Notes under the pieces: generated by a model
What the model saw: only the letters and a program-made list of their open reading frames with translations
What the model was told of the DNA's origin: nothing
Databases searched by the model: none
From: a virus
Strand: one strand, 5' to 3'
Virus record (IMG/VR): IMGVR_UViG_3300045988_012347
Location: 1-5,929 of that record
DNA: 5,929 nucleotides
Made by a program: the position numbers and the translations under genes
Shown here: positions 1,489 to 5,929 of the stretch, piece by piece
How the letters are laid out: each line of letters starts with the position of its first letter
Position numbering within the stretch: the stretch's first letter is position 1

Positions 1489-1540
1489 ATTATCTGGCCC
1501 AAGCTTACTTGTCTATCTTGGGCCAGTTGACACCTCCTTT
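1489..1540 (-). promoter_or_regulatory. VP4 translation-initiation region: strong SD separated from the AUG by a perfect 10-bp hairpin
   Basis: Minus strand: AAAGGAGGTG (1531-1540) TCAA [CTGGCCCAAG-13 nt loop-CTTGGGCCAG] (1494-1526) ATAAT ATG (1488). The linear SD-AUG distance is 42 nt, or 9 nt if the helix is closed. An in-frame TAG inside the loop rules out an upstream start. Confidence 0.6.
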
Positions 1541-1550
1541 CACTCTAAGT

Positions 1551-1738
1551 TGCGTGTGCGTGCGTGTTTCACGCGCGCGCGCGCAGATGCTGTTTACCTT
1601 AGCTTCGTCTCCCCAGCGACAGCCCCCGCGCTAGGGGGCGCCGTCGCAAGGGGGCCGCAAACTTGTTTTGCGGCCCCTGTTTCTACAGAGCTTTTTTGTT
1701 CTGATACTCTTCTTTTGGTTCCCCTGTGCTGGGGAACC
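1551..1738. other. GC-rich cluster of four stable hairpins in the large noncoding region (candidate ssDNA origin, packaging element or structured RNA)
   Basis: H1 (1551-1585) pairs two alternating Pu/Py tracts, (TG/CG)n and (CG)6, into 16 pairs including 3 T.G, with a TTT loop. H2 (1616-1647) is GCGAC..GCCCCC-GCGCTA-GGGGGC..GTCGC. H3 (1651-1677) is GGGGCCGCAAA/TTTGCGGCCCC, 11 bp with a 5-nt loop. H4 (1717-1738) is GGTTCCCC/GGGGAACC, 8 bp with a 6-nt loop. A 9-mer ACCTTAGCT is repeated at 1596-1604 and 1736-1744. No ORF with an SD is present. Confidence 0.6.
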
Positions 1739-1815
1739 TTAGCTCTGCGCGGAAGGGTTTTGTTTTGCTCTACTTGCTTTATTATATAACTTGTTGTAGT
1801 CGTAGTAGTAGTAGC

Positions 1816-1980
1816 GTGGAAACTGTTGAAAACACTAAATTATAGCGTTGATACGCATAATTATCGCCCCTTTTTCTGTTGAAAGTTTTGTTGAAAACTT
1901 GTTTAAATGTTGAAAACTTGTTTTTGTCTTCAACTATGGTTGTTTTTCCTGTTGAAAACTCTGTGGAGAATGTTGAAAAC
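1816..1980. repeat. Iteron-like array of the 10-mer TGTTGAAAAC
   Basis: Perfect copies lie at 1824-1833, 1889-1898, 1908-1917, 1950-1959 and 1971-1980. A variant TGTTGAAAGT lies at 1877-1886. An inverted 8/9 copy (GTCTTCAAC) lies at 1926-1934. Two copies extend to an identical 16-mer TGTTGAAAACTTGTTT (1889-1904, 1908-1923). The outermost copies extend to GTGGA-N3-TGTTGAAAAC (1816-1833, 1963-1980). The array is AT-rich, noncoding and sits between the VP2 stop and the GC-rich hairpins. Confidence 0.85.
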
Positions 1981-2000
1981 TGAAGTTTTCCACAATTTGT

Positions 2001-2884: not shown

Positions 2885-4543
2885 TTAAATTCTTTCGATT
2901 CCCGGAATGCTGTAGATGGGCATTTCCCGGAACCATGTTTCGTTGTACCAGAAGTCACAAAGGAACTGGTGCGCCTTTGCGCTTGTTACCGCAATCGTGC
3001 GGTCAATGTTTTCGCGTCCTTCCTGAATCCACTCCGCCGACAGTGTCGGCAGAGTGTCGTAATCGTCCGCATAGTGCCATGCATCCAGAGACTTTTTGTA
3101 GTTTGAACGCATTTCGCCGGTCACATAGGAAGGTTTGTACCTGTAGTCGGCCCAGCACTCCTGATACCCGAAGATTTCGTCATCTTTTTCCGTACCCTGT
3201 GCGAAGATTTCGCGGTTATATACCGGCTGTTCTCCGAGTGCCGCTAGCCGCGGGTCGTAGTATGTGAATCTTCCTTTTCGCGTCCATTTGGTTGTGAGTC
3301 CCTGCTGGTAGCTGTGCTCCACTCGTACCACTGCCAGACCGATGATATACCCGTACTCAGTTGCCGCGTAGTCCACCATCTGTTTGCTACAGGTCGTCAG
3401 ACTGTATGCCGCCGTGTTGCCCAGTGCCTGACCGGTCTGTTCGTCCGTCTGGCTTGTCTGGATGACCTGATTGACATTGATAGCGATTCTCTGCCCGCCG
3501 ATGTACTCCGGGATTTGCAGGCGGCTGTCCGGGCTTGTCACTCCCCATGTGCCGGAAAGGAACTCGCGGTAGCGCGTGCCATTTCTGGCATCGGCCTCGA
3601 AGATGTGTTGCAATGCGATGGCCTGTCTCAGGTCGTTGATGGTTATTGCGGTTACGCTGCTGAGGTCTGCCCCCAGGTATGCCGATGCTGAGTTTGTGTC
3701 GTCATTTTCATCTTTTCCAGATACCAGTGTGACACTGTTTTTGTAGTCTTCTCCGTTGTTTCCGCTGTTGTACATCGTCGGGTTGCTGTAATTGGTACTG
3801 ATAAGTTCTATTGTTTGTTTGAACTCTTGGGTTAAGTTTCTGTCGTCGTACATCTTTACTTTTGCAGGGCCGCCCAGCGGCAGGCTGATTTCCTCTGCAT
3901 TTTTCAACGGCGAAGGTAGGCAGGATGTGAAGTAGTCGTGGAACTTACCAGCTCTTGCCGGTTTCATCGCGTACAGCGTTGCTTCGTTGGTGTTGGTCGT
4001 CTTGTCGATGGCGTTTGCGCTTGACGTCTCTTTGCTGGCGTCTGCGTTCGTGCCGCTGTCATCCGACTTTTTGTAGCCCAGCATTAACGGCGCTTCGAGG
4101 TTTTCATCTCGAAACCACTCGTTGTAAATCATCGCATAGGCCCGCGCCGGGAGTGCGTTTACCTTCAGTGCGTTGGTCACTTCGGTCGGCAATCCGAAAT
4201 AGTCGCCAATACTGCCGTTTGCGAGTCCGCTTGTGCCGCCGATTGTGCAGGTTGGAGTGGAATACTCCGTCTTTTCTGCCCAGTAATCGGTGTTGTTCTC
4301 GCCGAACATATTTTCAAAGTGTTCCCACAAGAGACGTGACGGTACAAAGAAAAAGTATGTGTCCATGTAGCAGTTATCCATGATGGGATAGATAGGCGTA
4401 CTCATACGGATAAGGCCGTTCAGCTGTACTCTCGCGGTATCACCCGGGAGCACTTCGTCCATATAGATAGGCACCAACTCGCCTTCGTTGATGGTCGTCA
4501 ACAGCTGGTGTCCTCGGTCAAATTTAGACCGTGGTCTCTGCAT
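2885..4543 (-). CDS. VP1: Major capsid protein (Microviridae VP1 / F-like)
   Basis: 552 aa and the largest ORF. The N-terminal segment SKFDRGHQLLTTINEGELVPIYMDEVLPGDT matches the conserved Microviridae capsid N-terminus (F-D-x-S/G-H..T...G.L.P....EVLPGDT). Length is typical for gokushovirus-like VP1. Confidence 0.95.
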   Translation of the reverse strand: MQRPRSKFDRGHQLLTTINEGELVPIYMDEVLPGDTARVQLNGLIRMSTPIYPIMDNCYMDTYFFFVPSRLLWEHFENMFGENNTDYWAEKTEYSTPTCTIGGTSGLANGSIGDYFGLPTEVTNALKVNALPARAYAMIYNEWFRDENLEAPLMLGYKKSDDSGTNADASKETSSANAIDKTTNTNEATLYAMKPARAGKFHDYFTSCLPSPLKNAEEISLPLGGPAKVKMYDDRNLTQEFKQTIELISTNYSNPTMYNSGNNGEDYKNSVTLVSGKDENDDTNSASAYLGADLSSVTAITINDLRQAIALQHIFEADARNGTRYREFLSGTWGVTSPDSRLQIPEYIGGQRIAINVNQVIQTSQTDEQTGQALGNTAAYSLTTCSKQMVDYAATEYGYIIGLAVVRVEHSYQQGLTTKWTRKGRFTYYDPRLAALGEQPVYNREIFAQGTEKDDEIFGYQECWADYRYKPSYVTGEMRSNYKKSLDAWHYADDYDTLPTLSAEWIQEGRENIDRTIAVTSAKAHQFLCDFWYNETWFREMPIYSIPGIERI

Positions 4544-5767: not shown

Positions 5768-5884
5768 TTACAGCCGGATGCCGCCCCGGCTGACCTTCGG
5801 TCGGACGTTGATGTTTTTCGTCCGCTTTGCAGTCTGCGTGAAACGTCGCTGGTCGCCACGGCCTGCGCCGCTACGATGTGCCAT
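5768..5884 (-). CDS. 38-aa highly basic protein, putative DNA-binding/packaging protein (phiX174 J / gokushovirus ORF8 analogue)
   Basis: This ORF is not in the track because it is too short. ATG 5884-5882 is preceded by AAAGGAGGTGA with a 5-nt spacer, and the TAA stop is at 5770-5768. Product: MAHRSGAGRGDQRRFTQTAKRTKNINVRPKVSRGGIRL, with 8 R, 3 K and 1 D. It is the first gene after promoter P1. Its 5' part is duplicated at 1-74 by the terminal overlap. Confidence 0.7.
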   Translation of the reverse strand: MAHRSGAGRGDQRRFTQTAKRTKNINVRPKVSRGGIRL

Positions 5885-5929
5885 TGTGTCACCTCCTTTT
5901 ATCCTTTGTCTGCATTGTATCAAAAAAAC
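5811..5929. repeat. Terminal direct repeat, right copy (circular-genome assembly overlap)
   Basis: Identical to nt 1-119. Confidence 0.95.

Follow-up and report, generated by a model that had tools for sequence, protein, structure and literature searches.

The complementary-strand origins of M13 and the single-strand origin (sso) elements of rolling-circle replicating (RCR) plasmids are dispensable and modular; the minus-strand origin of M13 can be deleted without killing the phage. To our knowledge, all characterized Microviridae have been described as packaging the gene-sense strand. Hairpins in the intergenic regions of microviruses are generally suspected to be start signals for the complementary strand (PMC9865509), and the over-use of NNT codons by phages with single-stranded DNA (ssDNA) has been put down to deamination (C>T) of the strand that is packaged (PMC3278643). 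The locus described here, a cluster of GC-rich hairpins in a gokushovirus genome, shares several features with such origins and pairs best on the strand antisense to the genes.

The window, the whole stretch of 5929 nt that we analyzed (IMG/VR record IMGVR_UViG_3300045988_012347), holds a circular gokushovirus genome (Gokushovirinae) of 5810 nt plus a terminal redundancy of 119 nt. Since positions 1-119 are exactly identical to 5811-5929, it represents a complete, circularly permuted genome. Every gene lies on the minus strand, namely Rep/VP4 (484-1488), VP2 (2001-2846), VP1 (2885-4543), a VP3-like gene, ORF5/VP5 and an M15 peptidase. The closest GenBank records are the human-gut gokushoviruses KX513864 (89% identity) and KT264784 (80%). 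Strong Shine-Dalgarno sites of the type AAAGGAGGTG precede several genes and suggest a host that uses such sites and is probably a Firmicute. Another strong Shine-Dalgarno site accompanies a minus-strand ORF at 5768-5884, whose highly basic product of 38 residues (MAHRSGAGRGDQRRF...) is probably a J/VP8-like DNA-binding protein; this ORF has no annotation in the closest GenBank records.

VP2 and Rep are separated by a non-coding gap of 512 nt (1489-2000), 8.8% of the genome, in agreement with the roughly 9% given in the original prediction. Its Rep-proximal half is indeed compositionally distinct, with a GC content of 0.53-0.58 (0.575 at 1501-1700, 0.525 at 1601-1800) against 0.33-0.39 elsewhere in the gap, and the predicted GC hairpins are found at their sites. 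Read on the plus strand, H1 (1551-1585) is a 16-bp hairpin of alternating pyrimidine-G with a TTT loop, whose arms are (YG)8 and CA(CG)6CA and whose three T.G pairs fall on this strand. It is followed on its 3' side by an unpaired motif, TGTTTACCTTAGCT (1591-1604). H2 (1616-1647) pairs GCGAC..CCCCC with GGGGG..GTCGC and has an internal loop, H3 (1651-1677) is a perfect, GC-rich 11-bp hairpin (GGGGCCGCAAA/TTTGCGGCCCC), and H4 (1717-1738) pairs GGTTCCCC with GGGGAACC. At the 3' end is a conserved, mostly unpaired motif, AACCTTAGCTCTGCGCGGAAGGG (1735-1757), which is common to a distant lineage of 6.8-kb genomes (see below).

The 9-mer ACCTTAGCT occurs within the first unpaired motif (1596-1604) and again at 1736-1744. 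The predicted direct repeat is thus present, but within one genome it is close to what chance would give (about 0.5 such pairs in 512 nt by our own arithmetic). Its core ACCTTA is kept at both sites in a second clade, and TGTTTACCTTA is kept there as well in the alignment. A long-range closure between CCCCAGC and GCTGGGG, which had also been proposed, did not hold up, as these segments are only part of a 76%-complementary pair that is not kept in relatives. Compared to 200 dinucleotide shuffles, the segment 1551-1738 is far more stable than its controls: as DNA, it folds with −54.5 kcal/mol on the plus strand (z = −7.8, 0/200 shuffles) and with −48.7 kcal/mol on the minus strand (z = −5.4, 1/200 shuffles), and as RNA, the z-scores are −9.4 (plus) and −6.3 (minus). 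In view of the z-scores on both strands, we consider the stability of the cluster and its strand asymmetry to be real.

The secondary structure is under selection. In a structure alignment of 17 sequences of the window lineage, RNAalifold recovers H1-H4, 97.2% of the cells are paired on the plus strand and nine pairs show changes on both sides. The covariation score of 0.224 compares to 0.139 in shuffles (0/500) and to at most 0.104 with slid partners. Compensatory changes occur in all four hairpins: H1 has double changes at three pairs and otherwise switches between G-C and G.T, hardly ever to A.C; a C-G pair of H2 is U-A in 8 of the 17 sequences; four pairs have changed in H3 and one in H4, for which the distant lineage has an equivalent GGTTT..AAACC.

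The strand asymmetry that had been predicted from the T.G positions of H1 proved to be systematic. On the plus strand, the non-Watson-Crick cells of the 17 relatives comprise 63 G.T and 7 A.C, and because nearly all of them are plus-strand G.T, pairing is better on this strand than on the minus strand (97.2% vs 89.5%). The same polarity is seen in the distant lineage, with 174 G.T vs 7 A.C in 75 copies. The G.T-only pattern of H1 may however result from a C>T mutation bias acting on a (CG)n hairpin and is therefore not independent proof of folding on the plus strand.

Among relatives, the cluster is an accessory cassette of about 220 nt. Its maximal extent, 1543-1775 on the plus strand, is given by an indel relative to 'empty' relatives, and its core, 1548-1766, is common to the second clade. 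The ends (~1543 and ~1775) show neither a duplication nor terminal inverted repeats; as they lie outside the two 9-mer copies, the 9-mer is not a target-site duplication. The cassette is non-coding; a coding reading of a plus-strand ORF for 79 residues (1550-1789) was rejected, since its frame is broken by single-base indels in KX513864 and others.

In 54 IMG/VR relatives collected via Rep, the VP2-Rep gap is bimodal, with either ~270-340 nt and a GC content of 0.32-0.40 or ~480-517 nt and 0.41-0.45. Alignments of the relatives show full copies, partial deletions and clean absence. One genome (L006) has only H1 left, in two (L007, L018) H1 has collapsed and H2-H4 are gone, and the genomes from which the cassette is cleanly absent include one (L005) with a Rep of 95% identity. 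The second clade (clade 2), with a Rep of ~81% identity, has the four-hairpin block in the same orientation and with ~72% identity, at the opposite end of the gap, immediately 3' of the VP2 stop. There the cassette substitutes for ~40 nt, and empty genomes of this clade carry a plain, canonical terminator hairpin at the site. Because filled and empty relatives are intermixed on the Rep tree, the cassette is, as judged from these genomes, dispensable and has been repeatedly lost, gained or recombined. As its divergence (~72-77% identity range) parallels that of its flanks, a recent sweep is not indicated. Within the cassette, single hairpins can be swapped, since in one clade 2 genome (L045) H1 has been exchanged for a different hairpin and H3 has been rebuilt with several compensatory changes. 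The idea of a fixed or core origin or packaging signal has to be given up, as the cassette is absent or part-deleted in many close relatives; nor is it a fixed feature of a packaged gene-sense strand.

The part of the gap that is conserved across GenBank gut gokushoviruses is the AT-rich half (~1778-1995), not the GC cluster. This backbone (1778-1995, plus strand) lies outside the cassette and is present with or without it. It contains about nine TGTTGAAAAC repeats (1816-1995), whose reverse complement, TTTTCAACA, resembles a DnaA box; TTTTCCACA at 1986-1994 fits the relaxed DnaA-box consensus. The repeat region is kept in dozens of gut gokushoviruses, irrespective of the cassette, and possibly represents the true origin or promoter region. 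A small conserved hairpin within it (TTATAGCGT/ACGCATAA, 1838-1862, z = −3.6) contains TAGCGT on the plus strand and covaries to AACGT/ACGTT in clade 2.

On the other flank of the cassette, a 10-bp hairpin on the minus strand (1494-1526, z = −5.4) lies between the Rep start codon (1488) and the Rep Shine-Dalgarno sequence, GGAGGTG (1531-1537, minus strand, within the AAAGGAGGTG at 1531-1540). It covaries, with one stem position being C-G, G-C or A-T across three clades. The Rep start codon lacks a Shine-Dalgarno site next to it, the AAAGGAGGTG being 43 nt upstream of the ATG; the folded hairpin would place it at ~10 nt from the ATG, in the manner of a split ribosome-binding site such as that of T4 gene 38. 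Elsewhere in the window, we noted a bidirectional terminator-like hairpin at 116-142.

We scanned IMG/VR, metagenomes and 596 Gb of bacterial genomes with the 3' motif AACCTTAGCTYTGCGCGGA. In IMG/VR, it matched 42 contigs, all of them microviruses, and in metagenomes 78 contigs, which belong to the same two lineages apart from ~12 chance matches. The 10 matching contigs in bacterial genomes were all chance, at or below the expected number, with no microvirus genes nearby and without the rest of the element; we therefore rejected a host copy, an attB or a prophage.

The second of these lineages, the 6.8-kb or large lineage, has AT-rich genomes of 6.4-7.2 kb, and its closest records are unclassified gut Microviridae. 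Its Rep and VP1 are only ~26-44% identical to those of the window, over short stretches. The element is shorter here and consists of an alternating YG hairpin within a 10-bp outer stem, GGTTT..AAACC and then the 3' motif. A covariance model trained on window-lineage copies only nevertheless matches all 17 searched loci of this lineage, on the gene strand, with E-values of 2e-7 to 7e-4, from which we conclude that the elements are homologous. The element is present in every genome of the lineage that we checked, at a fixed position within a highly conserved, non-coding VP2-Rep intergenic region. Its plus strand is the gene strand in the 6.8-kb lineage and the antisense strand in the window lineage.

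One further match of the model (L188, E ~0.001) was discarded as an unrelated GC-hairpin cluster downstream of Rep. It lies in the same gap in which the window has a second GC-rich hairpin (418-486, z = −3.2), immediately downstream of the Rep stop. A further observation, on L228 (183-696), L281 and L094 (~2970), concerns the conserved non-coding module of 510 nt of the large lineage, which occurs on a contig of 2.6 kb alongside an AAA ATPase and an ORF resembling a multi-haem cytochrome; either the assembly is chimeric or the module has been transferred. Several large-lineage genomes have insertions of 300-470 nt immediately 3' of the VP2 terminator.

The question of which strand actually uses H1, raised in the original prediction, proved to be the key point, and both mutation and composition bias point to the plus strand, antisense to the genes. 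At four-fold degenerate sites of the gene strand, T is frequent in phiX174 (T 0.53, A 0.12), Chp2 (T 0.51, A 0.23), SpV4 (T 0.65, A 0.27) and a genome of the 6.8-kb lineage (L094; T 0.63, A 0.16), and rare in the window (T 0.10, A 0.37) and in KT264784 (T 0.13, A 0.50). The antisense strand of KT264784 is nearly equal in composition to the sense strand of phiX174. Four-fold composition is bimodal among 50 sampled IMG/VR gokushoviruses. Sites of this kind separate two classes (L154-L222), a T-rich, classical one and an A-rich, T-poor one, which we call mirror, with a few intermediates (L201, L204). The mirror class comprises one large clade, which includes the window, and a few small groups, among them phiMH2K; according to the VP1 tree, it arose several times. 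In both lineages with the element, the strand on which the element tolerates G.T carries a bias of the ssDNA type (excess of C>T, G>T and A>T) and T-rich neutral sites, and the plus strand of the element is the T-rich strand in every one of the 17 window-lineage and ~55 large-lineage metagenome contigs. In the window clade, this ssDNA-biased strand is antisense to all genes, both at four-fold sites and in noncoding DNA.

The mutation spectra show the same reversal. We polarized four-fold substitutions by an outgroup with a triplet method, a version based on singletons having too few sites. On the gene strand, the rates were 0.032 for C>T, 0.145 for G>A, 0.007 for G>T and 0.052 for C>A in the window lineage, compared to 0.108, 0.034, 0.043 and 0.024, respectively, in the large lineage. 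When a classical gokushovirus clade is compared to a second mirror clade, one without the element, all six complementary-pair asymmetries are likewise reversed. In the noncoding backbone of the gap, which is free of codons, the plus strand has 27 C>T vs 5 G>A, a rate ratio of 9.

Selection on codons was rejected as an explanation of the mirror pattern, since the bias is present in noncoding DNA too and, by our own reasoning, codon selection under strand-symmetric mutation cannot satisfy a product test on the forward and reverse rates. A replication asymmetry of PolC-type hosts was rejected as well, because SpV4, which has a PolC host, is classical and phiMH2K, from Bdellovibrio, is mirror. The cluster of TTGAAAA repeats could not serve as an orientation marker across the classes, as it is restricted to the window lineage, and between sister classical and mirror groups, noncoding DNA is too diverged to reveal an inverted segment.

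On the simplest reading of the mirror-image composition and mutation spectra, it would be the antisense strand that the window clade exposes as ssDNA. This reading contradicts the general description of the Microviridae, and in the papers searched we found no report of antisense-strand ssDNA in this family. Beyond it, we tentatively propose that in a large clade of gut gokushoviruses, which includes the window and possibly phiMH2K, the antisense strand is displaced and encapsidated, making these phages negative-sense Microviridae whose VP2-Rep intergenic module, with the cassette in it, would be turned round against the genes, so that the cassette would mark the packaged strand; we consider this plausible, if somewhat more apt to fail than to hold. 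Were it true, the Microviridae could no longer be assumed to be positive-sense throughout, the exception being a clade abundant in the human gut, and ssDNA virome libraries and analyses of codon usage and host prediction would have to be read differently.

For the cassette itself, we regard it as possible, though short of an even prospect, that it is an exchangeable signal folding in ssDNA, on the window plus strand, like a single-strand origin for complementary-strand synthesis. The window plus strand, antisense to every gene, would be present as ssDNA in the window lineage, the cassette would fold on it into its four hairpins and two conserved unpaired motifs, and host enzymes would start complementary-strand synthesis at the folded cassette, in an auxiliary, sso-like and non-essential role. 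Such a role requires that the plus strand be the single-stranded one; if the gene-sense strand were packaged here, the plus strand would never be single-stranded and the origin reading would fail. The match between element orientation and skew would by itself amount to a 1-in-2 coincidence, since only two independent lineages carry the element. Taken together, the polarity of the element, the mirror composition of neutral sites and the mirror spectrum of 12 rates argue that the antisense strand is single-stranded. The cassette cannot be the sole origin, as it is missing or part-deleted in many close relatives, a patchy distribution that fits the dispensable and modular nature of the M13 and sso origins. 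A signal folding in ssDNA is the best fit because pairing is selected, because polarity is fixed and tracks the ssDNA-biased strand, and because the element is dispensable here and universal elsewhere. From the observed structure, selection on pairing, dispensability, distant homology and match of polarity to ssDNA bias, we infer action at the ssDNA level, a priming function and the packaged strand. Of the original proposal of a complementary-strand origin, packaging signal or structured RNA, what remains is a selected, structured cis-element, possibly an origin signal, which is neither essential nor core and has no match in Rfam. If it is sso-like, it would be the first candidate element for the start of the complementary strand in uncultured gut gokushoviruses, and such elements would be exchanged as modules between very distant microviruses.

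The competing explanations each fail at least one of five constraints, namely that pairing is selected, the polarity, the match to the ssDNA strand, dispensability here and universality elsewhere. The cassette could instead encode a structured small RNA on the window plus strand, whose direction would be antisense to the phage genes in the window lineage and sense in that of 6.8 kb, and which would act in trans or as an antisense regulator. This would account for the most extreme fold being that of plus-strand RNA (z = −9.4), for G.U pairs being tolerated on this strand only, for the conserved unpaired motifs and for an orientation free with respect to the genes, as expected of an independent gene. 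Also, H1 with its T-rich tail scores as terminator-like on the plus strand; the only terminator-like matches in 1489-2000 are at 1550-1586 on this strand, and none were found on the minus strand. We nonetheless judge such an RNA unlikely, since no sigma-70-type promoter for it was found upstream on the plus strand in either of the two contexts, since the C>T bias explains the G.T excess equally well and since it would be coincidental that the polarity goes with the genome-wide mutation bias. Neither did the proposed Rfam-type scan yield a family for the cassette: cmscan on the whole window (E ≤10) gave no match in 1489-1890, and the only weak match in the gap, to Yfr11 (1891-2002, E 3.2, 22.8 bits vs a gathering threshold of 44), falls outside the cassette, in the AT-rich half. 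The homologous region of L094 gave only sub-threshold noise, and ARAGORN found no tRNA or tmRNA genes in the window. A role in the gene-sense mRNA (window minus strand), as a 5' leader of Rep or a 3' stabilizer or terminator of VP2, seems less credible still. The cassette does occupy the VP2-Rep interval of the transcribed strand, H2-H4 are perfect on either strand, and in clade 2 the cassette occupies the place of the canonical VP2 terminator hairpin. However, no T-run follows the hairpins on the minus strand, where H1 has A.C mismatches and pairing falls to 89.5% from 97.2%; its two positions relative to Rep and VP2 fit one mRNA function poorly, and a common mRNA-level role is impossible because the distant homologue has the reverse orientation with respect to the genes.

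An explanation that dispenses with any role for the phage, a selfish or neutral palindromic cassette (MITE/REP-like) spread by recombination among co-circulating microviruses, has in its favor the patchy presence among near relatives, some of which have partial deletions (L006, L007, L018), the two insertion positions, the occurrence in two very distant lineages and the exchange of H1 in L045. We find it improbable in view of the compensatory changes, which represent selection on pairing, of ends without terminal inverted repeats or target duplication, and of the presence in every checked genome of the 6.8-kb lineage at a fixed position; moreover, the cassette of clade 2 replaces a terminator hairpin rather than being inserted, its divergence parallels the flanks without a recent sweep, and it is single-copy per genome, with no copy beyond chance in 185,579 bacterial species. 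Action in the double-stranded replicative form, as a promoter, operator or topology element, would permit either orientation, and H1, an alternating purine/pyrimidine inverted repeat, could form a cruciform or Z-DNA switch. Bacteroidetes promoters have the consensus TTTG/TAnnTTTG, which TTTTGG-N21/22-TAGCTTTG resembles, making TTTG..TAGCTTTG a promoter candidate of this type in the large lineage; the TAGCTTTG motif lies upstream of Rep-side genes in L094. This promoter reading is weakened, because the window reads TAGCTCTG and natural variants of the large lineage (TAGTTTAC, TAG-CTTG, TAGCTTCG) break TAnnTTTG. In the window, transcription from the motif would run into VP2 in the antisense direction, and with its strong Shine-Dalgarno sites the window lineage is unlikely to infect Bacteroidetes. 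As the compensatory changes keep pairing and not sequence, which is unexpected for a protein-binding duplex site, we give such an element in double-stranded DNA a low probability.

Among known systems, the attP(+) of CTXphi and the attC sites of integrons resemble the cassette in being strand-specific ssDNA hairpins that tolerate non-Watson-Crick positions. They differ from it in that the scan of bacterial genomes with the conserved motif turned up no bacterial counterpart, neither an attB nor a dif-like site of 28 bp, whereas a folded attP of the XerCD/dif type would call for both and for prophage copies, of which the window lineage showed none. REP/BIME and MITE-like elements are also GC-rich, extragenic palindromes of patchy distribution, which can alter neighboring transcripts. 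In contrast to these, the cassette is present in one copy per virus genome, has boundaries (~1543/~1775) without terminal inverted repeats or target duplication, the 9-mer lying inside it, gives only chance matches in bacterial genomes (596 Gb) and is universal and fixed in position in one virus lineage.

The cassette also resembles origins of the complementary strand. The primosome site of phiX174 and the minus-strand origins of G4 and M13/f1 consist, like the cassette, of several stable hairpins grouped in an intergenic region of a small ssDNA phage. Such origins are non-coding, strand-specific and act as folded ssDNA, as the cassette would by analogy. No sequence relationship to them was found, and the cassette differs in folding on the strand antisense to the genes and in being polymorphic among members of one species-level clade. 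Nor does it belong to the ssoA family, since CS-6 (TAGCGT/A in the terminal loop) is not conserved: the H2 loop is GCGCTA on the plus strand, so that TAGCGC occurs only on the opposite strand, and relatives have GCGTTA and CGCGTA instead. We found no similarity to a known origin; an RSB motif was not identified in the cassette, and the replicon is a virus and not a plasmid. Of the traits of sso elements, the fold, the polarity and the dispensability are observed, and only the mutation bias points to the plus strand as the displaced one. The cassette does share traits with the ssoA and ssoU elements of rolling-circle plasmids from Firmicutes, as these are structured, non-coding segments of 150-250 nt, dispensable and exchanged between related replicons, which are orientation-specific with respect to the displaced strand and have, as does the cassette, conserved unpaired motifs beside their stems.
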